Shown piece after piece: positions 17,505 to 50,900 of a DNA stretch of 64,000 nucleotides. Source of the DNA: Isurus oxyrinchus (Eukaryota); NCBI GenBank assembly GCA_026770705.1, contig JANJGN010000047.1, positions 4,402,001 through 4,466,000 of the forward strand, written 5' to 3'. The notes beneath the pieces are model-generated. The model was not told the DNA's origin. It did no database searches and saw only the letters and a program-made list of their open reading frames with translations. Positions within the stretch are counted from its first letter, which is position 1. Every line of letters begins with the position of its first letter. The position numbers and the translations under genes are program-made.

Positions 17505-17518
17505 AGTGCTGGATATGC

Positions 17519-20599: not shown

Positions 20600-20862
20600 C
20601 AAATGTGACATGAGAAAAAACCTTTTTCACGCAGTGAGTAGATGGGATTTGCAATGCCATGCCTAGAATTGAGGTGGAGGCAGGTTCAATATCGGCATTC
20701 AAAAGGTCACTGGATGATTACTTAAAATGAAGCAAATGTGCAGGGCTTCAGGGAAAAGGCAGGAGATTCACACGGATTTAAAATGTCCAGGGAGCCGATG
20801 TAGACAGAATGTGCCTAATGCCGCCATTCTACACCTTTACAGTTCGTTGATTCTGTGATTCT
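20600..20862 (+). mobile_element. CR1 3' tail inserted in the old Penelope element
   Basis: ttttcacgcagtgagt...gtggaggcaggttcaat...gcattcaaaagg...ctggat...ttctgtgattct. Confidence 0.75.
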
Positions 20863-21232
20863 TATTTTGTGGAAGTAAAATAAGAACAAGTTAATGTTTG
20901 TTTCCTCAATGAGATAACGAGTTGAGCCAGGCTGTGGTGAGTGGTGGTGTAATGTTCGGGCCTATATTCATTAAAGAAACCGAGAGCCCTCAACACGCCC
21001 CTGTGGAGGAAGCAGATTTAGAAGGACTGGAAGGACATAGTGAAGAGTGCCCATCAGGGCAATGTAACTGGAAAATTTTGAGGTGATGTAGGGGATCTTA
21101 ATAATCACAAAGTTAGGTAGGAGGTTTATGCACAGTAGGGAGAAAAATAAAGCCTAATATGAAGAAGGAATTCCATCGGGGTAGGCACTGGTGGAGACAA
21201 TGTATTTAATAGGAAAGGCCTTTTGGGGGTAT

Positions 21233-21237
21233 AGATA

Positions 21238-21280
<43 letters not shown>
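21233..21280. repeat. (TA)n microsatellite
   Basis: Direct reading. Confidence 0.9.
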
Positions 21281-21285
<5 letters not shown>

Positions 21286-21496
21286 TGTTACAAGTGGGCT
21301 GCAGAGTTGCCGCACCATGAGGCTGGAGACTTTAGAGGGAAGTTCTCCCTTTGAGTGACTTCAGTCGCAGGCTTGCAAACTATAGCTTGATGTTTGTTGG
21401 TGGGGTTTTGTTCCAGATGCGGTGAAGAATTGTCTGAGTTTAGGTCCACAGACTCTGCAAGGCCGAGGACGGTGTGTCAGGCAACAGGCGCACCAA

Positions 21497-22312
21497 AACA
21501 AAAACAGAATTACCTGGAAAAACTCAGCAGGTCTGGCAGCATCGGCGGAGAAGAAAAGAGTTGACGTTTCGAATCCTCATGACCCTTCGACAGAACTTGA
21601 TTTCGAGTCCAAGAAAGAGTTGAAATATAAGCTGGTTTAAGGTGTGTGTGGGGGGGGCGGAGAGAGAGAGAGAGACAGAGGTGCTTGTGTAGACAAACAA
21701 GCAGTGCTAGAAGCAGATCATCAAAAGATGTCAGTGACAATGGTACAAAAGGACACATAGGTGTTAAAGTTAAAGTTGGTGATATTATCTAAACGAATGT
21801 GCTAATTAAGAATGGATGGTAGGGCACTCAAGGAACAGCTCTAGTGGGGGGAGCATAAAAATTTTAAAATATTTAAAAATAATGGAAATAGGTGGGAAAA
21901 GAAAAATCTATAAAATTTATAGGGAAAAAAAAAGGAAAAGGGGGGAAACAGAAAGGGGGTGGGGATGGGGGAGGGGGCTCACGACCTAAAGTTGTTGAAC
22001 TCAATATTCAGTCCGGAAGGCTGTAAGGTGCCTAGTCGGAAGATGAGGTGTTGTTCCTCCAGTTTGCGTTGGGCTTCACTGGAACAATGCAGCAAGCCAA
22101 GGACAGACATGTGGGCAAGAGAGCAGGGTGGAGTGTTAAAATGGCAAGCGACAAGGAGGTTTGGGTCATTCTTGCGGACAGACCGCAGGTGTTCTGCAAA
22201 GCGGTCGCCCAGTTTACGTTTGGTCTCTCCAATGTAGAGGAGACGACATTGGGAGCAACGAATGCAGTAGACTAAGTTGGGGGAAATGCAAGTGAAATGC
22301 TGCTTCACTTGA
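21497..22312 (-). mobile_element. Second young Penelope-like copy, 3' 0.8 kb only (GIY-YIG plus terminal repeat), perfect 14-bp TSD
   Basis: Nearly identical to 17519-18340. TSD AACAGGCGCACCAA at 21483-21496 and 22313-22326. Confidence 0.95.
21559..21597 (-). ncRNA. Minimal type I hammerhead-ribozyme-like motif in the Penelope terminal repeat (also 17564-17602 minus and 19931-19969 plus)
   Basis: AGUU-CUGUCGA-A-GGGUC-AUGAG-GAUUC-GAAAC-GUC-AACU: stem I AGUU/AACU, stem II, GAAA, GUC cleavage triplet, palindromic ACGU. Core deviates from CUGANGA. Confidence 0.6.
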
Positions 22313-22449
22313 AACAGGCGCACCAATTTGAGCTTGTGAACTTTGTTTTTTTGTTCATTGCATCAATGTCAATGACTGAACACACACACTCACACAGAAC
22401 TACCTGTTGATGAAGATTGTGATTCTGAGCCAAGCTCATAGAAAAGCCA

Positions 22450-26907: not shown

Positions 26908-26953
26908 ATGCTGCGGTCCTTTCTGACTCTAATTGCACTGCAGCTTCTGAAAT
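26908..26953 (+). CDS. Exon 1: signal peptide [15 protein letters not shown]
   Basis: gggacgATGc start context (A at -3), hydrophobic leader, donor T|gtaagt, phase 1 matching the downstream exons. Confidence 0.8.
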
Positions 26954-29900
26954 GTAAGTTTTACAAATTAATATTATCATGTTCTACATTGAGGTTTCCA
27001 CTATTATTAAACAATGAATCTTATTAATGCACATATTGATATTTACTGCAGAATACATTGAGCTATATTGTATGGTTAGTTTTGGATGTTTATTCAAATA
27101 TTAACACGTTTGCCTGTTGAGTAATGGGATATTGCTTCAAAATAATACGCAGATCGAAGGAAACTCGCTGCCTGAAAGGCCGGTGAATGCAGAAACCCTC
27201 ATCACATTTAAAACATGTTCGGTTGCGCATTTACATTATGGTAGAGCACAAAGAAAGCGACCAAAAATGGAAAGGGTGACTAGGCGGTATCCGATTATTC
27301 GACCCGCGCAGGCCCATTCAGCCGAAGGCCCTCATTCTGAGCGCAAATTGCTATGGCTTTACCCGTGTGCATAGGTCCCTGTTCCCTGTCGGCGTTTACC
27401 TGAGGTCCCTTAACCGGCTGGCTAGTTCGGAGTTCTAAACATTCCTAACTGAGAATCTTGTACAGATATAAAACAGATGGATTTCCCGAGAGAATAATCC
27501 AGTCTGGGTTTTATTTATTGAGCACGGACCTTTTACATTTATTTCTGCCCTTCATTAAGATCGTATGAATTGAGGATTGACGGCTCGAGTTTATTTGCCA
27601 AAAAATTATGCAGTTAATATTTTAGGCATTTCAATTGACTTAAAAATCGATCATTTTGAATCATATTTGAAAGGTTTTTACAGCTGGTTGGTGATTGTTT
27701 TAAATGTGATATTTAGGTCAGAACGATTTAAGTCCGAACTACAACATAAATACAGCAGCTGAATTTATTGAGTCTCCTGCTACTCTTCCTCACGCTCAAC
27801 TTATTAAGATTTGCACAATGATCAGACAATTTCAGCAGAGCTGGTACGACATAGAGAGCCGTCACTGTTAGAATATCATGGAGCGGAGTCTTTGTTCATG
27901 TCAACTAACTGAGTATGAAACTGCACCTTCAAAGGTGTGAGCCTCCACACATATTACTGTCAGGGGTATTTCTCATTCGCTGTTCCGCGGGAATTCGGTG
28001 TGATATAGGGACAAACACTACAGCATCTATAACAGTTGGTTCTGCTTTAGAGTGTTTTGCAAGTTCGATAAATAGTTTATATTGAAATAGGAATAAAGAG
28101 CACAATTATTTTTATAATGTTTTCTTTTGGCAATTAAGTGCATTCTCCAAATATATAGTTACTGCAACTTCTTTAACTCATGGGAAGAGACTTATTAATG
28201 CTCTTGCTTAATTTTTAATACAACCTTCCACGTATGACCACATTGTATGGATATTAAAATTCCCATTGAATTGTTTGTTTTTCAGGTTTATGTCATAAGT
28301 ACGTTGGTTCACATTTATTCCAAATTCTCATTGTTTTTCACGGTGTTTAATGAGGTATCGAGTCTTGTGCCTTTACTTCCTTCCACCTGCCTGATATTAT
28401 TATTCAGTTTTATGTCGATGCCGTGGTTGAGATTTGTTGCTGCTTCCAGTGTGTGTCTTCTTTTACAATTATAAATCTCTTATTAACAATAGGAAATGCT
28501 GCCTTAGTGACAGGGAAACCTCGCTGCATTCTTGTCAGGTACACAGTAAAAGGCATATGGCTCCCTAAATCAGTTTCAATTATTTAGAAATAAATGACTG
28601 ACACTAAACGCCAGGCATTGTAATTTATTTGAGGAATATGTCTTCTAAATAAAAGCACTGCTAGAAGCATGTATTATATATTGCTCCAGAAAGCACTTTT
28701 CACAAATACAGGAATGAACAAAATTCTTTGTGGAAAATTGGATTATCTTTCCTTAAATCCATAATTAATTTGGGTTGTTTAAGTGAATCCTGAAACAGTT
28801 AATTTAATTGCGTTGAATTCTGAATGTAGACAGTTTGCTCATTTGTTTCATTTTAAATCGCCAAGTTCAAAAGGCCAAATGTGACCATTGCTTTTGGTGG
28901 CTGTAATCTGGGCTAACATGTTTTACTTATTTCGAATTGAAACAGAGACATGGGTGTGAAAAGGTCGAAAGTGATCACACTCCCAGCAGTTTGCTTTTAT
29001 CTTCACCTCTGCGCCTCTTGGACAGAAACAACAGACTAGACATACAATTCGAACCAGGTTATTTAAATTCAGTGGATAAGGAACAGAGACCGTCGTTGTT
29101 AGAAAGGAACAGATCAAATTCTGGAATGTAAATTAACTCAATGAGTACAAAATCCTGGTCAGTGAAGCACTCACTGGTGAATGAACCATTGCAGATGTTT
29201 CAGTAACTGAATTTCCTCAGTAGAAATGTGGTCAAACCTACTTGTGATACAGTGAAATAAGAAGCATGCAAATGCTTTATTCAGCAATAGAGGGTTGGAT
29301 AATATTTTTGAATAGTGTAGAATAAAATCTTAATTTTTGTCAGCTTAAACATTGCTTGAATTAAGTTTTACTATATGTATAATTATTACCTGCAATCTAC
29401 AAAAACTTACTTAGCTAAAAATGTTCTTATATTTACATATTTGCTCAGAATTTTTCTTATCTTTTACTTGCATCAATATTATGACTGTTTGATATGAAGT
29501 TGTAGTTTCTGTTTCGCTCATTATCTGTGTACAGATTCAGGAAATTATCAAGTTTTATCCTCCTCCTTCCAAATTCCCGATAACTTTTATGTGGACTTAA
29601 GGGGATCTCGGGATTTTTTTTTCAATTACTTTGCATCGGGGCGAGGATTTTTTATTTTTTTTTTTGCTGCTTTGGCGGTGAAATGCACAAAAATAAATTG
29701 TGTTTTACTGACAGGGAATAAATTCGAGAATTATCAGACACATTTTTCATTTATCAAAATATATTTACATTGGCTATTTACTTTATTTTTTAAACAAAAC
29801 ATGAAAAATAAAAGTTTTAATTCTAAAATCCTAATTGTGTCGCCAATTTTACGAACATTCCCTGCAGAGAGCAGAAAGGAGACAGAAGACGAAATTAATA

Positions 29901-32900
29901 TAATCCCGAATCATTTTCACAAACCAAGCGCAGATCAGGTTTAAATCCCCAAAAGCGGGCCTATGTTAACATTTATATTAAATGGAGAGAGATTTGAAAC
30001 TGCTAATTTAAATTGTGGAAATGTCATTGAATGCATATTACGGACTGCATTATTTTCCCTTCATTCGACATCAAAAAGGGAAATTAATTTATCAAATTCT
30101 ATTAATAAATGTGACATCTAAATATTAACTTGCATCTGCCTAACAGAAAGTTTGAATACGTGGCCAAATACATATCACATTTCGATGTAATCCAGAATAC
30201 AACTCGCAGAAACGAGTCAGTTAGTTTTATGTTCTCCCCTACGGCTCTTGCACAGGCAAAGCAGCGTCAATTGCAAATGTTTTTAATCCCAGAGTGCTTG
30301 CAGCAGACAGCATTTACTCTAAGAGAAGCGTGGATCACATTCTGGGATGTAAGGTCACTGGCCGACTGTACAAACCTTGTTAAAGTTGCCTTTTCTGCCA
30401 ACTGAACCCGTGCGCATATTTTTTAAAACAGATGTTTATCAGTGGCAGAGGGTTGTGACTGTTGTGTGCTATAATGAGCGGATAGATTTCAAATAGTGTT
30501 TCCAATTGAACTTTGGAATTATGGACAATGACTGTTATATTTTTTTCAAATTTAAATTGTAAATTGCGATCGAACAATGTTGGTTGTGATAGGATAATTA
30601 TGGTTATAATGAGTATTAATTGTGTGCTGATAAGCGAGGAGAGCATAAGATCTCACATTTCACAGGCAATTAACCTGTAAACATGCTTGATTATGTGTTT
30701 CTTTTTGGGGGGCCTGAAATCTGTTTTAATTAAATCACTTACCTAAGGAAAACTTTTATATGTATATTACTTACGTGAACCTGAATGTTTGTCAGCCTTT
30801 TCCACATGCTGCATATGTTTTTATAACAGGATCGTGTTGTAGCTAATGAGATATCAGATCTCAACTCTCAATCTTGCATTGCTTTGGGTCGGTTTGTATC
30901 AGGCTTCAGGTCGCATTTATATCTTGTGCATCTTTTGCATGAGGTGCTTAATGTGGAGCTGTTTGGACTGCCGCTCAAGGGGGTTGCTATGAACTAGCTG
31001 GTGCGCAGCTTCTTGAGTATTGTTGCGACTTACATTACCCAGGCAATCAGAGACAATTCCAATAAACTCCTGAGTAATATATTCTAGGAAGGTGCAGGCT
31101 TTGTGCAGGAATGGCAGAAATCATGCAAGCGGTTGCAGAAATTCAACTGAGGGCGGGAATCAATGTGAGAGTTATTTAACACTTTAAACAGGGAATATAG
31201 AGATACCAGAATATCCTCCTGGTTAAACTAAAAAGCAGAGCCCATTATGGAAACTGTTAACGCACAATCAATGGTGTGAAACCAACAAATGGAAAGTGAC
31301 CAAAAACAGGCCGGTCACCATGTCTTGGAGCACCGACAGTGGCTGTGGTAAACATACTATCTTTAGTATGTTAGAGGGACCTTAGATGGTGAAGAGGTGT
31401 TCTGTGTAATGGGTTTTCTCGGGATCTCCTGGGTAAACGTTGACCAGTTAATAACATGAACCTGCTACTGAGCCTGTAGTGGATGCTTTATTAGGAGTGG
31501 AAAACAGATTAAATCACAAATCGCGGGATTATTTCTTCTGAAAAGCGACGGGAAATCTACCTTCAGATAATGATGGAAACTTGGGTGTTTGTTGAATTTT
31601 TTAACATAAAGTTCCTGAAAACCTTATGTTCAAAAAATGACCAAATATTCTCGCATTTGCTTTGAACAAAGAACGCTTTTTGCCGTTTCATCGTTCTCTT
31701 ACCCCCATGTAACTTTAATTTTCAACATTTCATTTCAGGCAGAACTGGGAGCAGTCAGGCTGATCCATCAGGTAATAACTCTCAATTTTCATATTATCTG
31801 AAATTTTTCTGTCCACTCTACGTGAATTAAAACTAACTATTGGAGACAATTGCGGTACCGACTTGATCATTGATTAACTCGCTCTCCATGTGCCTGTCAG
31901 GGAGGAATGGAATGTTTCCTGCACTCTGATAATGAACATACTTAAACCCTGTTGAGGGACAATTGCTGTCTAATGCAGAGTGACTATGACTTGGGTCCCA
32001 GATAGGAGAATGTCAATACCACTGATACTGCTTTTGATCCCAACTGGGCTGCCAATTCGTGAACAGACAGAGATAGAGGTTGCATGACATTCCGGTTCCG
32101 GAAGTTGGGGGAGGGTGGAGCTGGCTGGGAGAAGGAGATTGCAATTTGTGCTCTGATACTCTGAATGGATCTCAGTCTCCGCCAATCAGTGAGTTCGCTA
32201 TTATATTCATATCCATCTCCTGATCTCCGGGACTGGAATAAATTCTGAACGTATCGACACTGTCCCAGAAGGGGCATCTCTCCAACTTATACCGGCTCGT
32301 TTATGGGTTTAATACAATTATAGCCTTGCGTTTGAAATGTTTGATATTTAAATCGAGTTTCAATGGGAGATTGGGCCAAATTCTTCTGCTCTGACCTGCA
32401 GAAAGTGGAGACCGGTTAGCTGGGTCTCGCGGTTTTAATAGGTTGTAATTCTATGCTTATTATTGTATTTTACAGAGGCTGTGAAACTGAGACTGGCGGA
32501 TGGGGGCAGTCGATGCGCAGGAAGAGTGGAGATTCACTACAGAGGGCAGTGGGGGACTGTGTATGATTACAGCTGGGACCTGCAGGACGCCGCTGTTGTG
32601 TGTCGGGAGCTGGGCTGCGGGACCGCGGTCTCTGCACCGGGCGGGGCTCACTTTGGGGAAGGTTCCGGGCCCATTGTGACGGTGGGTGTTCAGTGCAGCG
32701 GGAACGAGGCCGCCCTGCGAGAGTGTACATCAATTTCCTGGGATCACTATTCCATTTCACACAACGATGATGCCAGCGCGATCTGCTCAGGTACAAATAT
32801 TTCTTCTGCTTCACATTGCCCATCGTATCCGATTTTCTTTCCCCTGGAATAAAGGCGGAAATGTTATTTTGGGACAGCTGATAGCTGAAGAATGAGACTT

Positions 32901-35900
32901 AGGGCAGGATATTCTAGTTGGAGTTAATGTTATATTCAATTAGAATGCTTGCGTGTCATACATTCATGTCAATAATTGTGTTAATTTATAAAATTAAGCT
33001 CACACCGGAACGGCACGTTGCAGCCCGCTTTATATCACTGCTGGCTTCTTGCTGTGAGATGACCCGGACAATCCATGGAAAGCGAAGAATGTTTGGAAAA
33101 TCCCGCAAGCATTATACCCTCACCCTCCCCACTTGCACGGATGGTTCGGCATGCTCTTGCGGTAATCAGTGAGAGCGATTGCAGAGTCCGGTTATTCTCT
33201 TCCAAATTCCCGATAACTTTTATGTGGACTTAAGGGGATCTCGGGATTTTTTTACAATTACTTGGCATCGGGGCGAGGATTTTTTTTATTTTTTTTGCTG
33301 CTTTGGCGGTGAAAAGCACAAAAATAAATTGTGTTTTACTGACAGGGAACAAATTCGAGAATTATCAGACACATTTTCCATTTATCAAAATATATTTACA
33401 TTGTTTATTTACTTTATTTTTTAAACAAAACATGAAAAATGAAAGTTTTAATTCTAAAATCCTAATTGTGTCGCCAATTTTACGAACATTCCCTGCAGAG
33501 AGCAGAATGGAGACAGAAGACGAAATTAACATAATCCCGAATCATTTTCACAAACCAAGCGCAGATTAGGTTTAAATCCCCAAAAGCGGGCCTATGTTAA
33601 CATTTATATTAAATGGAGAGAGATTTGAAACTGCTAATTTAAATTGTGGAAATGTCATTGAATGCATATTACGGACTGCATTATTTTCCCTTCATTCGAC
33701 ATCAAAAAGGGAAATTAATTTATCAAATTCTATTAATAAATGTGACATCTAAATATTAACTTGCATCTGCCTAACAGAAACTTTGAATACGTGGCCAAAT
33801 ACATATCACATTTCAATTTAATCCAGAATACAACTCGCAGAAACGAGTCAGTTAGTTTTACGTTCTCCCCTGCGGCTCTTGCACAGGCAAAGCAGCGTCA
33901 ATTGCAAATGTTTTTAATCCCAGAGCGCTAGAAGCAGAGAGCATTTACTCTAAGAGAAGCGTGGATCACATTCTGCGATGTAAGGTCACTGGCCGACTGT
34001 ACAAACCTTGTTAAAGTTGCCTTTTCTGCCAACTGAACCCGTGCGCATATTTTTTAAAACAGATGTTTATCAGTGGCAGAGGGTTGTGACTGTTGTGTGC
34101 TATAATGAGCGGATAGATTTCAAATAGTGTTTTCAATTGAACTTTGGAATTATGGACAATGACTGTTATATTTTTTTCAAATTTAAATTGTAAATTGCGA
34201 TCGAACAATGTTGGTTGTGATAGGATAATTATGGTTATAATGAGTATTAATTGTGTGCTGATAGGCGAGGGGAGCATAAGATCTCACATTTCACAGGCAA
34301 TTAACATGTAAACATGCTTGATTATGTGTTTCTTTTTGGGGGGCCTGAAATCTGTTTCAATTAAATCACTTACCTAAGGAAAACTTTTATATGTATATTA
34401 CTTACGTGAACCTGAATGTTTGTCAGCCTTTTCCACATGCTGCATATGTTTTTATAACAGGATCGTGTTGTAGCTAATGAGATATCAGATCTCAACTCTC
34501 AATCTTGCATTGCTTTGGGTCGGTTTGTATCAGGCTTTAGGTCGCATTTATATCTTGTGCATCTTTTGCATGAGGTGCTTAATGTGGAGCTGTTTGGACT
34601 GCCGCTCAAGGGTGTTGCTATGAACTAGCTGGTGCGCAGCTTCTTGAGTATTGTTGCGACTTACATTACCCAGGCAATCAGAGACAATTCCAATAAACTC
34701 CTGAGTAATATATTCTAGGAAGGTGCAGGCTTTGTGCAGGAATGGCAGAAATCATGCAAGGGGTTGCAGAAATTCAACTGAGGGCGGGAATCAATGTGAG
34801 ATGTTCTTTAACACTTTAAACAGGGAATATAGAGATACCAGAATATCCTCCTGGTTAAACTAAAAAACAGAGCCCATTATGGAAACTGTTAACGCACAAT
34901 CAATGGTGTGAAACCAACAAATGGAAAGTGACCAAAAACAGGCCGGTCACCATGTTTTGGAGCACCGACAGTGGCTGTGGTAAACATACTATCTTTAGTA
35001 TGCTAGAGGGACCTTAGATGGTGAAGAGGTGTTCTGTGTAATGGGTTTTCTCGGGATCTCCTGGGTAAACGTTGACCAGTTAATAACATGAACCTGCTAC
35101 TGAGCCTGTAGTGGATGCTTCATTAGGAGTGGAAAACAAATTAAATGACAAATCGCGGGATTATTTCTTCTGAAAAGCGACGGGAAATCTACCTTCAGAT
35201 AATGATGGAAACTTGGGTGTTTGTTGAATTTTTTAACATAAAGTTCCTGAAAACCTTATGTTCAAAAAATGACAAAATATTCTCGCATTTGCTTTGAACA
35301 AAGAACGCTTTTGTCCATTTCATCGTTCTCTTACCCCCATGAAACTTTAATTTTCAATATTTCATTTCAGGCAGAACTGGGAGCAGTCAGGCTGATCCAT
35401 CAGGTAATAACTCTCAATTTTCATATTATCTGAAATTTTTCTGTCCATTCTACGTGAATTAAAACTAACTGCTGGAGACAATTGCGATACCGACTTGATC
35501 ATTGATTAACTCGCTCTCCATGTGCCTGTCAGGGAGGAACGGAATGTTTCCTGCACTCTGATAATGAACATACTTAAACCCTGTTGAGGGAAAATTGCTG
35601 TCTAATGCAGAGTGGCCATGACTTGGGTCCGGGAGAGGAGAATGGCAATAACCACTGATACTGCTTTTGATCCCAAATGGGCTGCCAATTCGCGAACAGA
35701 CAGAGATAGAGGTTACATGACATTCCAGTTCCGGAGGTTGGGGGAGGGTGGGGCTGGCTGGGAGAAGGAAATTGCAATTTGTGCTCTGATACTCTGAATG
35801 GATCTCAGTCTCCGCCAATCAGTGAGTTCGCTATTATAGTCTCCTCCATCTCCTTATCTCCGGGGACTGGAATAAATTCTGAACGTATCGACAAACTGTC

Positions 35901-38900
35901 CCAGAAGGGGCATCTCTCCAACTTATACCGGCTCGCTTATGGGTTTAATACAATTATATCCTTGTGTTTGAAAGGTTTGATATTTAAATCGAGTTTCAAT
36001 GGGAGATTGGGCCAAATTCTTCTGCTCTGACCTGCAGAAAATGGAGACCGGTTAGCTGGGACTCGCGGTTTTAATAGGTTGTAATTCTATGCTTATTATT
36101 GTATTTTACAGAGGCTATGAAACTGAGACTGGCGAATGGGAGCAGTCGGTGCGCAGGAAGAGTGGAGATTCACTACAGGGGGCAGTGGGGGACTGTGTTT
36201 GGTATCAGCTGGGACCTGCAGGACGCCGCTGTTGTGTGTCGGGAGCTGGGCTGCGGAACCGCGGTCTCTGCACCGGGCGGGGCTCACTTTGGGGAAGGCT
36301 CCGGGCCCATTGTGACGGTGGGTGTTCAGTACAGCGGGAACGAGGCCGCCCTGCGAGACTGTAAATCAGCTTCCTGGGATCACTATCCCATTTCACACAA
36401 CAATGATGCCAGCGCGATCTGCTCAGGTACAAATATTTCTTCTGCTTCGCATCGCCCATCATATCCGATTTCTTTCCCCTGGAATAAAGGCGGAAATGTT
36501 ATTTTGGGACAGCCGACAGCTGACGAATGAGACTTAGGGCAGGATATTCTAGTTGGAGTTAATGTTATATTCAATTAGAATCATTGCGTGTCATACATTC
36601 ATGTCAATAATTGTGTTTATTTATAAAATTAAGCTCACACCGGAACGGCACGTTGCACCCCACTTTATATCACTGCTGGCTTCTTGCTGTGAGGTGACCC
36701 GGACAATCCAAGGATAGTGAAGAATGTTTGGAAAATCCCGCAAGCATTATACCCTCTCCCTTGCCACTCGCATGGATGGATCGGCATGCTCTTGCGGTAA
36801 TCAGTGAGAGTGATTGCAGAGTCCGGTTATTCAGTTGCCCAGCTGTTAGATCAGTGTTTTATGTTCTCACTCCCTGTATAAATTCCATGGCGTAACGACC
36901 CTGGGGAGCACACCGGAGCATGCAGGTGTCTTTGATTCAGCTCTATTGCGGAGTTTCCCAGAGAGCAGGGGAATTCCCCAGATGAAGTTGAAACTTCCCA
37001 GGATGTTCACACATAGTTCAAGGCGCCAATACTTTCGCTGGGTCCGCATGCTCATCTCTGCCGTTCCTCAGGTTTCCCAGATTCCGTAGTACGGAATAAT
37101 TGGTCTGATATTTTACAGGTTGTGAATCGGGAACTGGGAAGGAAGGTTTCTGTGTGTGGGGAGAGTCTAAATTATGGGGCAGCAAGGGTATAATCTGCAA
37201 ACATAATCCCGATGTCAACTGCACAGACCATTCGGTTCAATATTTAATTGATATTGAGATCGGAAGAAGTGCAGCATTTCAAACCAATATGTTAAGTGTA
37301 ATGCAAGGCACAATTGCAGTGAATAATCTTGAAAGCGTTACATTACTGGATGAAAAGCGGAGAGTTCCCCATCAGCGCACCCAAGAAATCCTGGCACATG
37401 GACCTAATCTAGGCATCATCGGAACAGATCTATTAGCAACTTAACCCTTTGTGGGATTTCGGTGGAAAGGGCAGCAATTATAAAACTGAATCAGCCTTTT
37501 AAAACTAAACTCAATGGAGATTAAACGAAAACTGCACTTTCTAAGTTACTGATCAATGTTGTAATTTTTTCAACTGCTTCAGTCATCTCCTTTATGTTAC
37601 ATGGTCGGAAGAGGAGGTGTTTGATCATGACTGCCCAGTGCTCGGCTTCATTCGCAATTCATCAAATTAGGAAGCAGCCCATAGCCACACAGAGCAAATC
37701 CTGCACAACATCCATGCCCCAAATGATATAAGCCAAGTAAGACGTGTCTGCAAACGGCTAATGACAGCAATGGAAGAGAGATTCCAATTGACATTCAGTT
37801 GCTTTGCAGTCAAACAGTCCCTCATCATCTTAAACTTGGGGAACACCGTTGACTGAACTTCCATTTGCAATAGCCAATGCCAATGCCGTGGCTTCCTCAG
37901 CAGGCCAGAGGCTGAATGTTCTGTGAGTATCAGTCTTCAACTGTCTCACCATTGTTTCTCATTTCCCGAATCATCGCTAATCGTGGAAACTGCACGTGAC
38001 CTGTAAAGGCGCTGCTGAGGCACTAGACAGGAGACTTGCCATCCCCAGATGAAGTTCTGTCTTTGACTGGGTGTTTAATCACCACCATCAACCACCATTC
38101 TCTCCCTCAGTGCGATAATAAGACGGCAATCTTAATTATGTGCAGGGAGAACAGCAGCACCTCTAAAAATATTGTCTTCTCCATTTCTGAAAGAAACGGC
38201 GTTCATCTCGCTGGTTCAAGCTCCATGAACTCCCAATCTAAGAGCAATGTGGTAGCCCGTTCACCACACACAAGGCAGCTGCTTTTATGAAACACAGAAT
38301 ATCTTCTCAAGCAAACTCGGATGGACAGTTAATACAGGTCGTGTTAGCGAAGTTCACAACTGTAGTTCTGTTGTAAACATTACACAGAATCACACATTCT
38401 CGACGGCAAAGCTACTGACTCCATAGGCCAACCGGTCAATCTCGGGGTTAATGACGTAATCGAGCATCCCCCGCTCCCCAACCACTTTACCCTCCAGGCA
38501 ATACAACAACTTATCATCTATCTTCATCAATATAACGTGAGGTTCCATTCACCATCATCTGTTCATCAATCATAAATAAATCCATTGCAATCACCTCATC
38601 TTCAGTGGCCACGAGTTCCACATTCTAACAACTGTATGGTAAAAAAAAACATTTCTTCCGAATGCATTTGGGAATTTTAGTATTGTTTGACCATAGCCCA
38701 GAGTTAACCATCATCTATCCTGTCAATTTGTTCAATCGTCAAAAAGATCTTTATCATTTCAGTGCTCGGGTTACCTTCCCTCGTGAAAACAAATGTACCC
38801 AGGCAATTCATTTCATTTCCCCCAACCTTCCTCGTAGAACGGTCAAAATCCATATAAATAACTTTCAACTTGTCTCGTGTCTCTAGGAATTTGATGCCCC

Positions 38901-41900
38901 CCTTGCGGTGGTGCCGTGGGTGTCAATGGAGATGAGCTATTCAAATGTCCATTGACTTCCGCGGGACAGGAATATGCCGGCAGTGCGAGAGTGGGCTGAC
39001 CGGAATATAATGAAACTATCAAGCTTTTTAACTCCTTCCCTCCAAAAATGAAGGCCGAGACACTGAGATCCGATGGCACATCTACCTAATGTGCACTTTC
39101 ATTTTCCAATGAATACCTGAGCTCTGAATTAATTCTCACAAAAATAATGCATTGCCCTTAACTATTATAACATTCATTTGCAAATTAAGTGCACATTTTG
39201 GGAATTTATTGCATTTACTGTTTATTCTGTCTCTCTAAGTACCCCCTCACAATTTTCCTGAGTTTAAACTGCGCTTTGAATTTGACTCCACAGACTAATT
39301 TTGAACTATTCCCTGTGGATAATCTGTTTCTGTAAACGGCAAACAATATTGTTCCTGGCATCAGTCCTGTTGGAACACAACGAACTACCTTTGTGCTGGT
39401 CTGAATATCTAACATCCATCCTTAATTACTGATGGCTGTTTGCTATGCAGTTTGGGATTAATTCTGCTAGCTTTCCGCCAGCTCCACATCGTCTCTCACA
39501 CGGAATTAGCTGTGTTTTTTTCTGCTGCACGATAGTACAGAAAATCTACTGTGAAATGTAAAGGAAACGATGTAACTATTTTTTTCAGAAAAAAAACAGA
39601 AGATGTTAAAACGACTGATTTGGGTAAGAGGTACCTGTGGACAGACAATGTTCACGTTTCACACTAGTAAGATTTTGGCACTACAACTGTGGAAGCGATA
39701 TTCAGAGACAACATTCGTTAATGGACAAACGATCCATGAACAACGTTGGTAACCATTATAGAAGGCTGCGATCTGATACTCTGTCATCCAAATATTTTAA
39801 TGCATCTGACAGTGTAATTGGTGTCCTGGATCCAATGACCCATAATTATTGAGGGTCATTTTTGTTTTAATCCATTCACCCCTATATTATGCGATGCAAT
39901 TCAGGCTACAGATGGAAGGTTACCGGACATTAATTGCCAAGGCCCGTGAAGACTATTCGGTTGCAATGAGTTTGCTTTCTCATGGCCTCTCACTGACCTC
40001 ATTACACTAGAAGTGAGGTCTGAGTGAGGAAGAGAGAGAATATTGTTGGAGTATCTCTGTCTCCCCGTTCAATTGCACATTGATTATGGCCTTAAGAGGC
40101 TCCCTTTGTATGTGATTGATTATATATATAAGTATGAAATGCTTCAGTGATCTATTAAATTCAAAGCTTCGGGAATCAAAAGGCGATGTACGGGAACATG
40201 AACCAATTGACATAAGCTGTCCTTTCAAGTTTGCACTTGGAAGACGGGAAACATTCTGGGGAGCCCGAAATGCACTCCTTAAATGATCAGCGTATTAAAA
40301 CTAAGGCTTGGTTCACAAAACTGTACATGGTTATCCGGTGATTGTTTCGTTTGGATTCAGCTGTCAGTACTTTAAAAATGCTAAAATAACACGAGCCTGT
40401 TTTTTGCCCCTTGTATGTGACCGTTACATTTTACTGACATATTCAAAATGGCACTTAACATTGCTTTGTGCTTCCAGTGTTCGGAATGTTTCACTGGGAA
40501 AGTATTGTGGGATCAATCATTTTATGTTTGAGGTTATTTGGTGTCTGTGTTCGTCAATATGCTCCATCGACGAAAGAACAAACGCCAGCAGATCAAATGG
40601 TAGATTCGAGGACAAGTCAGGGTTCCTGGATTTATCTGAGTAATTTTCTGGCCGGTCACAGGATATGTCTAGTTGCAGTCGCCCGGTTCCAGGGAAGAGT
40701 TACTCCCTGAAAGTGTTATGAAGAGAAAGCTGCTGTGACTTCCATATAAGTAGATGTTGTGAACAATGGGTGTTATAATTTCAAGTGGGGGGATTGAAAA
40801 ATGAGGGGCCAGAGGTAGTAAAAGTAGATGAATTGGGACTTTGAGAATAAATATGTATTTAAAACTATTAAATTCACCTCGATAGAAAATACGGAATGTA
40901 AGAGAAAGGGAGTTTTTCTGTTGATCAGATGTTTTCCTGCAATGATGGCTGGGTTGGCGGGGGTTGGCGGGGGTTGGGGGGGTTGTCTGTGGGTGGGGGG
41001 AATGTTGCCTGGATGCAACTTGATGTAGTTTCTATTTGGGCATTAGTGCCAATGAAATACCAGCTGTGAAAAGTCGAATTCTTGGTGATCTTCATCAATG
41101 AGATCTATCGACCGAACATCGAAGGTGTGCACGTGTGTTGGGGTGAAGGATGGTATGGTTGCATTTCAGTCTATGGATTCCGGGCGGGAACCAGTATAAA
41201 AATAATATGTAATGAAGAAATTTCGCTGCAGGTAGTGCAGAGATTGTTTGACATCAAAGAGCACTTCTCTCTCAATAGATGTTTTGCCAAGTTCTCTCTG
41301 CAGATATAGTGCATGCTTGTAACACTGTACTGAGGTAGCAGTAAATCTAAGTGTGTTAAAGGATGCATGTGGCCTCTTTACAAGCAATAACTTCTGGAGG
41401 ATTGTGGGGTTTAGCTTAATCGCTATTGTGCCGGGATGAAACCCTTATCAGAAGTCATCATCACAGGTTTTGCTTAAACAGATATGCACAAAATTGAAAA
41501 TGATTGGGACAATCATGAATTGTTGTTACTCAGATCACAGGATTCCCAGACTCGTATCCATGGATTCCAACTGCTCGGGCAGACTGGAAATACAGTTCGG
41601 TACAACCTGGGGAACAGTGTGTGATCTTCACTGGGATTGGAATGACGCCAGTGTGGTCTGTCATCAGCTTCAGTGTGGAGTCCCCGTGTCTGTGGAAAAA
41701 GGGGCTTATTTTGGAAAGGGCACTGGAATTCTACGGAGCGATAAATTTGATTGTAAAGGCAATGAGACAAGCCTGACAGACTGCCCTATCTCTCCAGTAA
41801 ATCAAAACGAGTGCACCCACATGAACGATGTCGGTGTGAGCTGTTCCGGTGAGTAGAAGGATTCCGAAACACATAAAGGTTTTCTGGTGAACTTTTCAGA

Positions 41901-44900
41901 AACGGAGAATACGCCATTGCTGTTTCCTTGTATTATGATCATTCCCAAGCACTTCCTTATAGTTCACTGTCGCTTTTTATGATTCTGGAATAACGCAATT
42001 ATGTTTAAGTCAGTAACTTCTGCGTAATCTGAAAATAATGCATTATTATTGCGAAATTAATGCTTGCACCATACATAGGTTTTTCATTCACATTTGCCAG
42101 AACACCCATTATCGATTGAACTCTCAAGTCGTTTTCTGTCTGCCAAACATGAAATGACTTCATTAATTATAAAAGTAGGCGAATCAATATTTAACTGTGG
42201 TTTCATTATTTTAGAGAGGCGTTTCAATGAATTGACCGAAATAAAGTAAATAATTAGGAGAAAATTTCCTTTCTTGTTTCTTGCTCAAAATAGTGGGATT
42301 ATCTCCGTAGCAGCATTGCAACTGTATGTGCTATGTGCCTACGTCAACAGTCCAAGAGAATGAATTCCAATCGCTTCCACAGGGGAATGTAGAAAATAGG
42401 AATAAATGCAGGCCATCTCAAATATATTCCTGTCCCGGCAATAACAACTTCATCCCTTGAGTGACCTTGTTCTGGATTACTGGACCCGTGACTCTTTGCC
42501 AAATCTTTGAAATCCATTTAAGATTTTGAACATCGTTTAATCAGCCCTAATCCTTCCAGAGTAAATAGCTTCAAGACATTTTTGTTCGATTCGGAATCAC
42601 AATACAATGTTTAAGTAAATTAAGCATCCTTCTATATATACGTTGCATCCCCTCCAAGACGAATAGTTTCTTCTGGAGTGCCCTGTCCAAATCTGACAGC
42701 TGTTATACAGGTTGGTTCTGGCCAATACTGGGTATGACTGAAACGTCACGTCCTCTCTTTGGTATTTCAAAGCTGTTGAGACAAAGTCCAAAATTCCATT
42801 AGCTTTTTCCTGGATGAACTCTCTACTTTGAGCAAACAGACGCGTTCGTTTAAGGGCTTATCGCAGTCTGGTGAGTTTCAAACAGTAAGATGTGTAAACA
42901 GTGCAGTACAACACGAATTTATAAATTTTCATCTCTTCATTTTTCTTTGTTTCGCCATGTCTATATTCATATGTTCATTTACAAAATATTTTCGTCCTTA
43001 TTTTTATTAAAAACAGGGAAGCATGGACCCCGATTGGTTGGTGGTGAGAACAGGTGCTCCGGCCGGGTGGAAGTGCTGCACGGAGAGCAGTGGGGGACCC
43101 TGTGTGATATTCACTTTGGTTTAGAAGACGCCAGTGTGGTGTGTGAGCACCTTCAGTGCGGGGCTGTAAAGGAAATCCCGAGGGTTTCTCCCTTTGGGCA
43201 GGGAGCAGGCCGTGTGTGGAAGGAAAATTACAGGTGCCACGGGAATGAATCGCGAGTGACAGAGTGTCGGGTTACATCCGGGGAAAATTTTAACTGCTCA
43301 CATGGAAATGACGCCAGTGTCATCTGTTCAGGTGAGACCTCTCAGTCAATGTAATCATGGATTAAAATAATCTCCCTGCAACACTGAAAGGGGCCTTTCA
43401 GCATGTTCTGTCCATGGAGGCTCTCTGCGAAAGTATCTCACCCACTCACACAACCCTGCAATTTACAATAACTGTGCATTGTTTTTCACTCATTTATCTA
43501 ACCATATATATTTTAAAATCTGCGATTCATATTCATCCACCACATCTTCAGGCAGTGCATTTCAGATCCTCGCCGCCACATTCTTAGACGATGCTTTTCA
43601 TATCTTCAAGCACCATATTCTCCAACAATGAATTGCAGATCCTCATCACCATCATTTTCAGAGAGTGCATTTCATATCCTCATCCTTCGCTTTCTCAGGC
43701 AGTGCATTGCAGACCCTCATCATCCATATTCTCCAACAGTACAATGCAGATCATCAAATACCACAATCTTAGACAGTGGATTGTAGATCGTCATCCAGCA
43801 CATTCTCAGACAATGCATTCCAGATCCTCGTCACTCACATTTTCAGAAAATGCAGTGAAGATCCACATACGCCACATTTCCAGACAATGCATTGCAGGTC
43901 GACATCCACCACAATCTCAGACAGCATATTTCAGATCTTTATCCACCAACTTGTCGGAAGGTGCATTCCATGTCCTCATTCACCAAATTATCTGAAAGAG
44001 CATTGCAGATCGTCATCCAGCACATTCTCATACATGTGCATTCCAGACCCTCATCACCCACATTCTCAGACAGTGCATTGCAAATCTTTATTCCCCCACA
44101 TTCTCAGGCAGTGGATTGCAGATCCAAATCCACCACATTCTCAAGCAGTGCATTGCAGATCCACATCCCCCACAATCTCAGACCGTGTGTTTCAGATCCT
44201 CCCCCCCCCCCCCCACGATCTCAGAATGTGCATGTCAGATAGCTTGAAGCAGATCCTCACCTACCCCCATTCTCAGCCAGTGCATTGTAGACAGTCATCC
44301 ATCACATTCTCAGACAGTGTATTGCGGATTGCCATCCAGCATATTCTGGTACATTGCATCCCAGGTCCTCATCACCCACATTCTCTGTCAATGCATTACA
44401 GATCCTCATCCATCACAATCTAAGACATTGCATTGCAGATCTTAAGCTAGCATTTTCTCAGACAGTGCTTTGCATTTCATCATTCACTACAATTTCAGTC
44501 AGTGCATTGCATATCCTCGTCCACCACATTCTCAGGCAGTGCATTGCAGAACGTAATTAATCGCAACATGCAAAACTAGCATCCTTATGTCACCATTTCC
44601 AATTTGTCCATCACCATGAATCTGTACTGATCATTCTTGATCCTTCCGCCAATGGCAACAATTTTTCTGTGCCGTAATGTCCAGAACCCGAAGGTTGTTT
44701 TAGCATTCCCTCTCCAAGTAGAATATTCGTAGCTCACTCAAACAATGTAGAAAAAATACGTTTGTCATCACCGGAATGATCTTATGAAGCATTCCTGCAT
44801 CATTTCTAATGCCTTCATACCCTCCCTAACGTTTGTAGCCCAGAAATGGAAGCATTATTCCAGATGAGGCCGAAATGAATCATAACATCTTCCATTCAGT

Positions 44901-47900
44901 GTACTCTGTGCCTTAGTTATACACCAAAGAACTCCAAACTTTAGCAGCCTTTTCGCAACCTGCACTGTCAAGTACAATGTTTCTTACAAATGCACCCGAG
45001 GATCGTCAGCTTCTGAAACTCAGTCAGAAATGATCCAGTTCTTTATTGTTCCTTCTCCTAGTCCTTCGTTTGGCAGCCTTACCTCTCTTAAAAACACTCA
45101 CTTCTAAAGCACAAGGCCTGTTTCAAGAATGACTCAAGTTATTTGCCAGAGCAGTCAAGTCTGTGAATGAAGTGCAGTGCTGTGGGAATGCTGTTCTCTA
45201 TAATTTTGCTTGTTCCTGGTAAGAGGTTTAATCGATGCTATATCTGCATCAGTGGAGGTTAATAAAAATATTTACCATGAGTCTACTTTGAGGGAAACTA
45301 GGGAGTCTATCCAAAGTTATCCCTTGATCAACATCAGACAATGTAGCTCATCTGGTCATTATCACACGATTTTTGTGCCATTTTACTGCGCCCATTATGG
45401 CTGCGGCGTTCCTTAAATTGCAACAGTGCTGACATTACACAATGCAAATAAATGACTGTAACTTGCGTTGAGGGATCCGGTAGTTTTGAAAAAAATACTT
45501 ATCTACTTTAAATACGTATTTTTTTTACTTCCAACAAAAATGGGCCAACCAATGCTTCCCTCAACCGAATTTCGTCTATAACTTTCCGGCCCGTTCTAAC
45601 AGCTTGTCGGTGTCTGATTTAATTTTAATCTTTCAACATTTTACAACACTTAAAACAATTCTGTATACTTTGAAGAAAAAAAATGAAATTGTTCCCCTTA
45701 CAACCAAGTCTCGGTAGATATCATGTATTAACGGAAAATCAGGGTTTCTAGCCAGGTGGAATGTCCTGTTCCTCTGGTCTGGAAAAGAAGAAACGTTGAA
45801 CACGACGTCCTGTTCCCTTTCAAAGAGCAATTCCATCTCCAGTCAGTCATTTTTCCTTTTATTCCACAGGCGCCAAACATTTCTGCCAAGCAGCTATCGT
45901 GACCCTTTGCCAAAGGTCATTTCAAAGTCCATCAAAGCCACATCCACTCCATTAGCCTCATTAACAGTCTCACTAACCTCATTAAATTACTCTAGCAAGT
46001 CCGTGCAATGCGATTGTCTCTTACCAAATCCGCCCTAGATTGTTAATGAAACTACATTTTTCAACTGGCTCTAACTTCTGCCCCAATGTATATTTTCCAA
46101 GGAAACAAAGCTTTCCCAAAGCCAATATTAAACTTACTGGTCCGAATTTACTGCATTTATCCTAACACCATTTCTTGAACAAGGGTGTAATATTTGGAAA
46201 CTTCATTTATCGGCATTGAAGAAGGATGGGAACATTATGACCATTATCTGGCGATTTCGGCTCTGACATTGGTCATGCTCCCCGAATACACGTCATCCAA
46301 TCCATGTGTCCCGTCTAATTCAACATCAGTTGCCCAAGCCAATTCGTCCTCTTTATAAATATCTAAACACTCCATTTTATTTCATCTGCCTATTCTTTGT
46401 CCAGCATTGAGGAGCATTTTCTTCCTTGGCTAAAAAACATACTCAAAATGCTGACTCAGCAGCTGAGCCATAACATCAGCCTTTATATGCCGATTTCCTT
46501 CCTGGTGTCGGTTTTGTGCCTATATAAGACTGTAAGATCCCGTTTTATGTTAGTGGGAGTCTCTTATATGGTCTGGATATTGTACATTCATCTTGGATCT
46601 CTCTTGCATTATCCAAATTCAATATCCTATCCATATATATTTATTTCTGCTTCACCTTAATCCCCATCTATTTAATCACCCAGGGAGCCTTTGAGCTTTT
46701 GCATAGTCCTGCACTTGTCTAAGCCAATTTTCCATTATTGCTCCTCAGTCATTTTCAGAGCCTGCACGTCACGAACATCATTTATTGCAATGTACGTTCA
46801 CACACCTGAAAAGTAAATATAATTGAGGCCATTATACAACCTCGGTTGTGCTTATCATGAATAACACCACATTATTTCCTCCGTTATTGCAATCTTTCTT
46901 TTCTACTTTTCTGTGCAGTTTGGTTTTTCTCTCTAACCATATCTGCCCGTTCCCAAATCCCTGACAAATTCATTCTGTACTTTCCAATCAATAAACCAGA
47001 CGGACATTGCCCCCGGAGTTTTTTCATGTGAAACACATGAAAACATCCATTGGTCCTTTCTTCACAGAACTGAGTCTATGAGTCCATGAGAACAGGTCAC
47101 AAAGTCACATGAGCTTCATTAGGACTCTCGTGCACCGTTTATCTTGCGACATGTTCATCAGTTCTATCGCTCGTACGTTGTGCTGGGATATTTCAATATT
47201 ATCAGGATATTACTCCGTTGATGGCAATTTACTAGATTGTTTGCAACATCCTTAAAAATCATCTGCAGGACTACACCCTTCTTCCTACCTCTGAAATTGT
47301 TCCACTAACGGAGCATGAATGCTGACTGCTCACCCTCCCGCATCAGCGTGCTCAGCAGGGTCCCACTGATCTGCCTCACCTTGGCACTAGGGTCAGAACA
47401 TTTACGTGAATAATCATTGCCCCGGTTATATTGAGTCAAATGTGCATGATTTGTTTGAATGTTACCCCTTGCTCTCATCTTGTAGATGAAAGTTGGTCAC
47501 TGAGATTGACGAATGGGGGAAGCCGCTGTGATGGTCGGGTGGAAATTTACCACAACGGTCACTGGGGCAGAGTACAGGACAGCCTCTGGGACCTCAATGA
47601 TGCTACCGTGGTCTGCAAGCAACTAGGACGTGGTGTTGCACTTGCCGCTTATACCTCTGCAATGTATGGAGAGAGTGAAGGGCCTGTGTGGGTGAATGAT
47701 GTCCAGTGTGGAGGAAACGAACTGCATCTCCGCAACTGCAGCTTATTTGCAATGAATTCGTCTCTCAATGAAAGTGTCGGCGTCGGGGTTCTGTGTTCAG
47801 GTGAATAAATAGTTCAATTTTACCGGAACATAAATAGAAATATCTAATAAGGAGGGAGGTGTGAATATACGTCACTTGTTCCTCGAGTTCTTTTAACCTA

Positions 47901-50900
47901 ACTGCTTAGCATTGGAGGGCTAACGTGGGGAGAGTGGGCACGCACAGAACTGATCAACAAGCAGGACATGCATTTTTGCTGCACATTTATTAACGACGGA
48001 ATTCAGAATTTTCTCTCAAACAGGAAATTCTGACAGCACTTCTGTTAGTGCGGGGCGGGGGGAGTCGTGAGGGGCGGGGCGGTGTGGTGTTGGGAGGGGC
48101 CTTACAGCTTGGTGCGAAATTGTGTGTTAATTTAACAACGTTTTCATAGAATTGCCGTTCATATACTCGTCAGAGCGACAGGCCGCTCATGGGATTTCTG
48201 CATTATTCAATGCATGAAAAAACGATGCACTTACAGGTCTTTCAGCAGCAGAAGGCTGAGCTTCTATGAAATGTCATTCTTAAAAGTCACTTGGTTTCTT
48301 TTTTCCACTGAAGCTGCCAGATCCCCTGAGGAATTGCAGCATTTTTTTTCAATATAATCAAAATAAAAAAGCGAGATAATCAGAAATCGACTGAAATAAG
48401 TTTTCGAGATATGTGCAGGGGAGAGAAAAAGCTGTGTACAATTGATGTTCATAAGTAGTTTAGGTGGAACGATGAATACAAAAAAGTTCAGTTGAGGTTG
48501 AAACAGGGCACACAGCACTGAGCACACAATACGTGAACTGCAAGCCAAAATATCGATGGAATCAGGTGTAGGAATATTTGAAATCTTTGTGCACTCCACA
48601 TTATAAATTTCAAGTAGTTAGAGATACATGGTCTCAACTATAGAAACAGTTACCTGTCATAGTCAATTGATTTGTTTTATTACTTTTGCTGGATAATATC
48701 CAATAGTTTCAATTTGTGTTATGATATAAATGCGTAATCGAATCCTCTTAATAAAGATTGTCTTCTTTGGATCAGAACACAAACAGTTAAGGCTGTCAGA
48801 CGGTGGAAGCCCATGTGCAGGCCGAGTGGAGATTTACTATAACGGGACCTGGGGCTCAGTTTGTGATGATTCCTGGGATCTGACAGACGCTGACATCGTT
48901 TGCAAACAGCTGCATTGCGGAAAGGCTTTGGACGTGACACTTCCTGCCTCTTGCGGAGCAGGCTCAGGTCCAATTTGGTTGGAAGGCTTGGAGTGTTCAG
49001 GGGAGGAATCGTATCTCTGGCAATGTCCCTCTGAATATTGGGGTGCCCACGACTGTTCTCATAAAGAAGATGTGAAGATCATGTGCTCAGGTAAGGGTGA
49101 CGTAAATGCACTTATTTCCTTTATACGAGAAGATTCAGACAGATAGAATTTTACTGAATGGCCCAGAAACTGTACATCAACTGGTCATTCTGCTCAATGC
49201 GTCTGACTGCTGCTTATTCTGCTCATAATCTTACATCATTTCATGTGGTCTGAGCTGTATTGCACTCTGTATTTTCCCCTCGTGCCTTTATCAAACGTCA
49301 CATTCAAGGCATCACCACAATTCGCCCCCACTAAATGTACATGTTCCATGTTCCACATTCTCCTTCTATCAGGGTAATAGAAAGCGAAACAGAAAATCTC
49401 CTAAATCCCAATTTGTTTGGCTCTTGTGTTTCTTTGTCCGAAAAAATCACGACTTTATTCTAATCAGCATTGAAATAATTTCAGCATTGACAAGCCTATC
49501 CTGCTGTCTCCGACCGTCTTCCTGCAGTTAATGGAACCTGTCTTGGTATTAACTGCAAACCGTAGTGCATTTTGAACATTTACTTCAATTCCAAATACCA
49601 AATGTAATATGTTAATCTGAAACAGATGTGAGCCCCAGCAATAATCCATGTGTACAGCACGCCCCAACTTCTGCTATTATATATGAAATCCTGCGTTGTC
49701 GCTTGTTGGCTCTTCTTTTAATACTGTGCCGGCAATTTCATTTCCCTGTTCTCAGCCTTAATGCAGCTGTTTGAAAACTTTTTGAAAGTTATTGTTTTCA
49801 AAATCCATGTGGATTACATGGACATTATTATCTCCACATAATCTTTCTGAAACTTCCTCAAGTAATTCAATGAATTGGAAGATCTATAGTTCGCTCTTTT
49901 GAAATCTGTGTTGATTATCATTGATTATATAATTGGATTGTACATGTATCACTGTTACATTTCTGGAATAATTATCTCTATTCAGTGAACACCTCTGGCA
50001 CAACTTGGGTGGAGGGGGCACTGTTGACATGATTCCATTTATCACTGGAAACATCTGGAGATTTCTTCTTTCTTTGATAGAACACAAAGAGCTGCAGCTG
50101 GTGAATGGAAAGCATCGCTGTGAGGGGCGGGCGGAAGTGTTCTACAATGGGATCTGGGGAACAGTGTGTTCGGAAGCACTGGATCCCCATGATGCTGAGG
50201 TGATCTGTAAACAGTTACAGTGTGGCCCCCTGGTTTCTATAGACTATACCACTCAGTCATTCGGAGAAGGATCCGGACCTATTTGGCTCGATGAAATAGA
50301 ATGTATTTCACACGAGTCGACTATCTGGCAGTGTCAGACAGACCCGTGGGGACAACACAACTGTAATCACAAAGAAGATGCAGGCGTTTCATGTTCAGGT
50401 AACAAAACAAACCTTCCAATGTGCGACGGTTATTTCATTCATTGATCTCCTCAATAGGAAGAAAGATAACGAAGGGCCAGCCCAAAAGTGAAAAGGATTG
50501 TGGTCGAGAATCAGGTGATTGCTCCACTTTAATAGATCAATTATCTGAGTTGTCTACCTGTATTTTTGTGCAGAAATAATAGTGATTGATTATCTTTGAC
50601 AGATTCAGATGTAGGTTTGCGCCTGATTGGAGGTAACACCAACTGCTCCGGGCGAGTGGAGATAATGTGCAAAAACAACTGGAGCACAGTGTGTGATGAC
50701 TCTTGGGATATGGCCGATGCCAATGTTGTCTGCAGACAGCTGCATTGTGGCTCTGCTCTATTGGCCACAGCAGGGGCCACTTTTCGACAGGGTGAAGGTG
50801 ACATGTGGTTTGATGAGGTGAGGTGTACCGGAAGCGAATCCTTTCTCTCTGATTGTCCTTCCTTAACGTCTGCTCAACCTGACTGTGATCACAAGGAGGA

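Follow-up and report, generated by a model that had tools for sequence, protein, structure and literature searches.

A tandemly doubled tip module in a predicted WC1/SCART-like receptor gene of the shark Isurus oxyrinchus

Does a receptor gene that carries its outermost SRCR domain twice use the two copies as alternatives, or does it string them together? The question is raised by a gene (the window gene) in a 64,000-nucleotide stretch of the Isurus oxyrinchus genome (GCA_026770705.1, contig JANJGN010000047.1, forward-strand positions 4,402,001 to 4,466,000; hereafter the window, whose own numbering is used throughout). A sequence-only reading of the window had proposed a variable-cassette receptor, in which transcripts carry domain 1, domain 2 or both on a constant six-domain body and diversity is built within one gene. 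We find that the doubling of the tip module is real, and conclude with moderate confidence that it arose by import and that the gene mainly encodes an eight-domain receptor with two tips, with minor one-tip forms arising by leaky skipping and an inner tip that is drifting.

The units were compared by self-BLAST of the window and by global alignment, and both bore out the anatomy first described, a duplication of one micro-exon plus the distal SRCR exon (D1) that keeps splice sites and phase 1-1 behind a single leader. Positions 29566-33197 and 33199-36832 form one 3,637-column match at 96.67% identity, and the global alignment counts 122 differences over 3,638 columns. Both units contain one micro-exon of 33 nt and one SRCR exon of 315 nt, with intact AG/GT ends; the two micro-exons are identical, the two domains (D1a and D1b) differ at 12 residues, and the unit junction is without long homology. 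The distal domain had been described as having six cysteines in both copies, which is wrong for the second, as a G>A change at 36331, unique among 19 in-frame D1 exons (duplicates included), leaves D1b with five. The features of this region are as follows, where the C62 gene is a three-unit relative described below.

26908..26953, + strand: leader exon, 46 coding nt, with ATG, signal-peptide hydrophobic core and GTAAGT donor; not part of the duplication; spliced to the micro-exon in relatives' contigs
29566..33198, + strand: unit 1, 3,633 bp; sister of unit 1 of the C62 gene, 1.0% different
31739..31771, + strand: first micro-exon copy, 33 nt; probably encodes the last part of the signal peptide and the mature N-terminus, with a putative cleavage site
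32476..32790, + strand: D1a, distal SRCR exon, 6 Cys, without C2 and C7; matches the PF00530 profile
33190..33206, no strand: unit junction, found also at C62:556773-557012 and C62:553146-553382
33199..36832, + strand: unit 2, 3,634 bp; sister of unit 3 of the C62 gene, 1.4% different; 3′ half nearest the single-unit gene at C47:2.94 Mb
35371..35403, + strand: second micro-exon copy, identical to the first; would form an 11-residue spacer when spliced between the D1 exons
36112..36426, + strand: D1b, second distal SRCR exon, 5 Cys (Cys73Tyr), 12 residues from D1a

Splice joints were taken from contigs of four sequencing runs of related organisms, presumed to be RNA. Three of the runs contained joints with GT-AG ends, in which the leader meets the micro-exon, the micro-exon meets D1, D1 meets 41534 and D2 meets D3. 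Annotated shark relatives also open with a leader and micro-exon peptide matching the window gene. The description of the micro-exon as a linker holds only in the duplicate; in single-unit genes it is the exon directly after the leader, and it likely contains the signal cleavage site. Leader-like ATG reading frames inside the units (30846-30909 and 34477-34540) are hydrophobic and signal-peptide-like, have an upstream AG and occur in all 16 genes examined. A second leader within each unit (ATG at 30846 and 34477) was nevertheless rejected, because relatives' contigs join 26953 directly to the micro-exon, and it is further disfavoured by the use of the upstream leader in annotated relatives and by loss of the donor in one paralogue.

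Leader, micro-exon, D1a, micro-exon, D1b, six further SRCR exons, stalk, transmembrane segment and tail together give an open frame of 1,049 codons, with a putative last exon of 8 nt. The eight SRCR exons are 315-318 nt long with one domain per exon, and each of the 14 internal exons is in phase 1 with a length divisible by 3, which makes in-frame skipping a general property rather than one peculiar to the doubled module. The "splice-ready" quality ascribed to that module is thus real for its exons but belongs to the whole gene, every internal exon of which is equally skippable.

41534..41848, + strand: SRCR D2, 8 Cys; exon comparison, relatives' contigs and profile
43017..43331, + strand: SRCR D3, 8 Cys; exon comparison and relatives' contigs
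47486..47800, + strand: SRCR D4, 5 Cys, private Cys48Arg (paralogues have 6-7 Cys); paralogue comparison
48776..49090, + strand: SRCR D5
50081..50398, + strand: SRCR D6
50603..50920, + strand: SRCR D7
51069..51110, + strand: stalk exon, 42 nt
51296..51412, + strand: transmembrane exon
53599..53706, + strand: cytoplasmic exon 1, with YEEI tyrosine motif (motif class from the available part of PMC2906472)
56422..56532, + strand: cytoplasmic exon 2
57066..57191, + strand: cytoplasmic exon 3, with YDDA motif
59083..59090, + strand: candidate last coding exon, with stop codon

These features predict that the window gene is a WC1/SCART-like membrane receptor. PF00530 scored above its cut-off in all four domains scanned, the best solved relatives being CD163; domain size (100-110 aa for the group), one exon per domain and 6-8 cysteines agree with SRCR group B and the CD163 family, D1b and D4 being exceptions with 5 Cys by private losses; and leader, transmembrane segment and cytoplasmic tail give a type I membrane layout. 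D1 and D4 have no C2/C7 pair. The YEEI in the first cytoplasmic exon fits the tail motif Y-(Q/E)-(D/C/E)-(I/L) common to WC1 and CD163c-alpha/SCART (PMC2906472; this and the other papers cited by PMC number are used here from part of their content). Among named proteins, white shark models come closest, at 88-97% per domain. Changes private to the window gene number 6 replacement and 2 silent, two Cys losses among them, with variants in D1b, D2, D4 and D7; its private Cys48Arg (D4) and Gly61Arg (D7) hint at relaxed constraint on this copy.

We next consider whether the doubling could be an artefact in which two haplotypes or paralogues were mis-joined in assembly. The junction is known from assembled contigs, not raw reads, and the units are about as far apart as paralogues (3.15% versus a median of 3.6%). 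However, a three-unit version of the gene lies at C62:550008-559385, where the window junction recurs twice at 97-98% identity, and each of the three junction copies on the two contigs carries its own substitutions. Unit order is kept as well, the first units of the two genes being sisters (1.0%) and the last units likewise (1.4%), while the window's own units are 3.15% apart. C47, the window's contig, and C62 are collinear in three of four downstream tiles (96.8, 99.8 and 99.6%) and not in the remaining downstream tile or in both upstream tiles. The C62 gene is thus probably allelic to the window gene, in which case unit number is polymorphic (two versus three); a segmental duplicate is the alternative. 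Since the repeat recurs on C62, a separately assembled and probable second haplotype, we regard a mis-join, named beforehand as the result that would undo the sequence-only reading, as very improbable.

In the middle unit of the C62 gene, alleles are those of the last unit up to 31489 and mostly those of the first unit from 31710, a switch that marks unequal crossover, and its D1 differs from its neighbour's by one residue. The last, inner D1 carries a 2-nt insertion with a stop while the gene body behind it is intact, so a membrane product of this gene would need that exon skipped. The inner D1 has been damaged independently in both multi-unit genes, by Cys73Tyr in the window and by a frameshift on C62.

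Where did the second tip come from? The two units were compared with 16 single-unit genes; the unit alignments cover all but one of the 18 single-unit or C62 genes, the gene at C62:1.55 Mb having no unit-start anchor. Both alleles of 84 of the 114 substitutions between units occur among these single-unit genes, although polymorphism there is confined to 505 of 3,626 columns. Over its 3′ half, unit 2 shows 7/589, 8/595 and 5/317 differences from the gene at C47:2.94 Mb, versus 26, 27 and 19 from unit 1. That gene is also the closest to the 3′ flank (0.65%), while the 5′ flank lies closest to the C303 gene (0.76%), and in a tree D1b groups with the C47:2.94 Mb gene (99/93). Because unit differences are mostly family-wide alleles and unit 2 tracks another paralogue, the second tip was likely imported from a sister gene rather than diversified in place. 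The two tips likely differed already when an offset join brought sister genes together, or were made different by later conversion. Under this scheme an offset join between two sister genes (or later conversion from paralogues) would be the single origin of the doubled module, unequal crossover would then alter unit number (2 versus 3), and the inner tip would lose constraint once a new outer tip is present, so that the overall outcome may be a replaced tip and a lengthened stalk.

The family around the window gene was surveyed by matching the micro-exon pattern across the genome, which gave 50 matches at 47 places, a lower bound on loci. This WC1/SCART-like family of at least 47 loci lies on C47, C62, C87, C114, C303, C20, C53, C55, C79 and other contigs. 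More than one micro-exon copy within 10 kb was found at only 2 of the 47 places, the window gene (two) and the C62 gene (three), so that a check of copy number among paralogues, which the sequence-only reading had called for, finds extra units there and nowhere else. Among 19 genes of the close subfamily, the mean D1 difference is 11.7 residues compared with 1.8-5.2 for D2-D7. D1 is the hypervariable domain of the family, and the expectation of a most variable distal domain, as in WC1, is upheld. Its pN/pS is 1.13, with pS raised too. Diversity within one gene was not supported: diversity lies in the at least 47 loci, unit differences are mostly paralogue alleles, both multi-unit genes have a damaged inner copy and the extra C62 copy differs by a single residue. 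Twelve of the 19 subfamily genes are lesioned (frameshift, stop, splice-site damage or deletion), a count in which some single-base indels may be assembly errors. In the C87 gene at 541 kb, D5 to the transmembrane exon are unmatched and the tail exons kept, an internal deletion.

Variable D1 positions include 30, 31, 69, 70, 92 and 97. By motif spacing, these would correspond to the sites for cation and ligand in DMBT1 SRCR8, namely D1019, D1020, D1058, D1059, N1081 and E1086 (PMC7043408). D1a and D1b differ at four of these six positions, which suggests that the two tips may bind different ligands.

Doubled tips also occur in other elasmobranchs. Searches with D1 against longer proteins were dominated by many-domain DMBT1-like proteins (best 120 of 946), and tail-based queries were more effective. 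Of 34 classified elasmobranch family proteins, two have a true tandem D1, one a horn shark (Heterodontus francisci) model and one a skate model, and in the horn shark model the linker between the D1 copies is the micro-exon peptide. "Tandem" flags on three of five proteins (P0136, P0140 and P0150) were dropped, as D1 is followed there by a different short SRCR domain, and P0087, P0100, P0139 and P0151 look like fused neighbouring genes. The skate model, P0095, has four tandem D1-type domains separated by repeated junk linkers, which points to an array of D1 copies in the genome. Outside this group, goat (P0017) and muntjac (P0072) models have 13 and 9 tandem 6-Cys SRCR domains at the N-terminus.

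The horn shark cluster with the doubling has 17 members, "DMBT1-like" by source name (XP_067881912-21, XP_067882821-26, XP_067877756 and others; P0137, P0152-P0165), which fall into about six gene models when grouped by accession and isoform label. Among the 15 members listed, ten proteins carry both tips (one with a shortened first tip), four carry the second only, none carries the first only and one is a fragment. Two of the second-tip-only forms splice the leader to unit 2 and two begin with another short N-terminus before micro-exon 2; both-tip and leader-to-unit-2 isoforms coexist in two gene models. These automated isoform models presumably rest on RNA reads, and the skip models could stem from reads of single-unit paralogues. 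Both horn shark tips keep 6 Cys, and they differ from each other at 20-22 residues. In the tree, first tips (100/96) and second tips (95/88) form separate clades and the skate copies their own (100/100), on an unresolved backbone. The window duplication arose independently of those in horn shark and skate, given the 96.7% identity of its introns and the placement of its tips among genes of its own genome. The horn shark doubling is older and fixed across its roughly six gene models, and the window duplication is separate and young. With the module doubled in horn shark and multiplied in the skate model, this looks like a recurrent route in elasmobranchs, met with in three lineages.

We then asked how the doubled module might be spliced. 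All one-tip and two-tip forms are in frame, and the prediction that domain 1, domain 2 or both could be carried in frame stands, as exon phases allow every form and the horn shark models are a precedent for both-tip and leader-to-unit-2 forms. The inferred design of a variable cassette on a constant body is not supported, since we found no mechanism forcing a choice and no first-tip-only form among the horn shark proteins listed. The intron from D1a to micro-exon 2 is 2,580 nt, and co-inclusion is in frame with no steric or frame block. Variable-first-exon clusters of the protocadherin/UGT1 type give each unit its own promoter and start exon; the window gene has one leader outside the repeat and no start exon in either unit. 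The tandem exons do share length and phase, as in mutually exclusive clusters, but a block to co-inclusion is missing. Docking/selector pairing has been proposed for mutually exclusive exon arrays (PMC6071210), and a crude ungapped score against 25 shuffles gave no convincing helix of this kind, either upstream (42 versus 37.3 ± 3.7, with 1 of 25 shuffles as high) or downstream (39 versus 39.2, with 18 of 25 as high), inverted repeats being weak. No RNA run was listed as containing the window gene, no sequencing run contained more than 25% of its words, and the D1-to-micro-exon joint, the only one that distinguishes multi-unit genes, was absent from the relatives' four runs, which says nothing about the window gene. 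Transcripts would mainly carry both tips in series, and leaky exon skipping would give minor one-tip forms.

Several known systems resemble this arrangement in part. DMBT1/SALSA is polymorphic in SRCR repeat number and, like the window and C62 genes (2 versus 3 units), has tandem SRCR units whose number unequal crossover can change, whereas the window gene encodes a predicted membrane receptor with a signalling tail and repeats only the tip module. The horn shark models share the order of leader, micro-exon, D1, micro-exon, D1 and body, with isoforms carrying both tips or the second only, but their doubling is older and both of their tips have six cysteines, while the inner tip of the window gene is damaged. 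Ruminant WC1 is similar in its multigene array, one SRCR domain per exon, most variable distal domain, tail tyrosine motif and possible in-frame skipping (PMC2681482, PMC5949365), and cattle WC1 diversity comes from variegated use of many genes (PMC5949365). Unlike WC1, with 6 or 11 domains, the shark family has 7 (8 in the window gene), and the window gene doubles the distal domain with its micro-exon; bovine WC1 transcripts often lack internal SRCR domains, while domain 1 was never found missing or spliced out in the available part of that report (PMC2681482). CD163c-alpha/SCART and the chicken WC1/SCART hybrids (a...c-n-d-e-d') have an internal domain without C2/C7 at the place matching D4, and YEEI fits their motif (PMC2906472); the domain letters used here follow Cys pattern and order and are not based on a tree that includes the mammalian domains. 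Chicken CD163_3 repeats domain a within a larger block (a-b-c-a-b-c...), and the window gene repeats only the distal module (PMC2906472). A change in domain number is thus already known for SRCR receptors. Dscam-type mutually exclusive arrays likewise have tandem exons of equal length and phase and duplications that include the intron (PMC6071210), although the window gene has neither their block to co-inclusion nor a helix that we could find, and horn shark homologues mostly include both copies.

How, then, should the doubled module be understood? It is unlikely, though it deserves serious weight, that it is a decaying by-product of birth-and-death turnover, a duplication without selected function. 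The many lesions in the subfamily, the private changes of the window gene with its two Cys losses, the frameshifted last unit on C62 and the scarcity of extra units (2 of 47 places) all fit such a by-product; the window frame, however, is open over its whole length, the duplication is kept in both probable haplotypes, and the horn shark subfamily keeps its doubling with all 6 Cys and with tips that differ at 20-22 residues. A regulated cassette, with cells selecting D1a, D1b or the pair to go on a constant body, seems to us improbable. Every form is in frame, the tips differ at likely ligand-site residues, a shark of another order and a skate have the doubling too, and two horn shark gene models have leader-to-unit-2 beside both-tip isoforms, but those skip models could come from single-unit paralogues, none of the 15 listed proteins is first-tip-only, and the 2,580-nt intron and the lack of a convincing helix leave nothing to enforce a choice. 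Additionally, D1b of the window has lost a conserved disulfide Cys, and where at least 47 loci exist two options contribute little.

We therefore favour an imported tip, both tips in series and leaky skipping, and the following points weigh against this view. The isoform ratio of the window gene is borrowed from relatives, no transcript of the window gene having been seen, and the precedents conflict on which tip is lost, domain 1 never having been found missing in bovine WC1 and the horn shark skip forms dropping the first tip. Genuine skipping of the inner tip would fit the C62 gene, whose body is intact although its last unit is frameshifted, and inner-copy damage amounts to two events in two genes of a subfamily with lesions in 12 of 19. 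Positive selection on D1 was not demonstrated by a pN/pS of 1.13 with raised pS, and an offset join and duplication plus gene conversion are indistinguishable on present data. Taken as a whole, the sequence-only reading had the anatomy right and made a skipping prediction that has a precedent, but the diversity is mainly that of the gene family and the window copy is a poor working cassette.

Our results suggest that immune receptors that do not rearrange may shift specificity by taking an outer domain from a sister gene, with unequal crossover altering the number of copies and the old tip decaying or staying. A broader proposal, that sharks and skates repeatedly make the hypervariable tip a spliceable cassette, in at least three independent lineages, with tips swapped from paralogues and regulated choice, strikes us as improbable; if true, it would add a combinatorial layer to a large, undescribed family of innate-like T-cell co-receptors. 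More important than the duplication itself may be the family background, with its at least 47 loci, hypervariable tip and YEEI tail, and the horn shark is the better system for cassette splicing. We found no paper on a shark WC1/SCART-like family or on doubling of the tip only, in a literature search that lay outside subscription papers and supplements and outside the goat, sheep and pig WC1 gene-structure papers, which may describe repeated distal domains. CD163, WC1, DMBT1, SCART, scavenger and M130 had no mentions in the main text of PMC11372145, as far as available, and neither tip-only doubling nor a large shark family turned up in the available part of a cod paper (PMC9276791).

Two further features of the window lie outside the doubled module. 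A degenerate 37-bp minisatellite occupies window 43533-44556, in the D3-D4 intron. Retroelement-like repeat fragments lie within window 16892-22314, with a direct pair at 17518-18340 and 21513-22314 (92%) and an inverted copy at 19732-20035.

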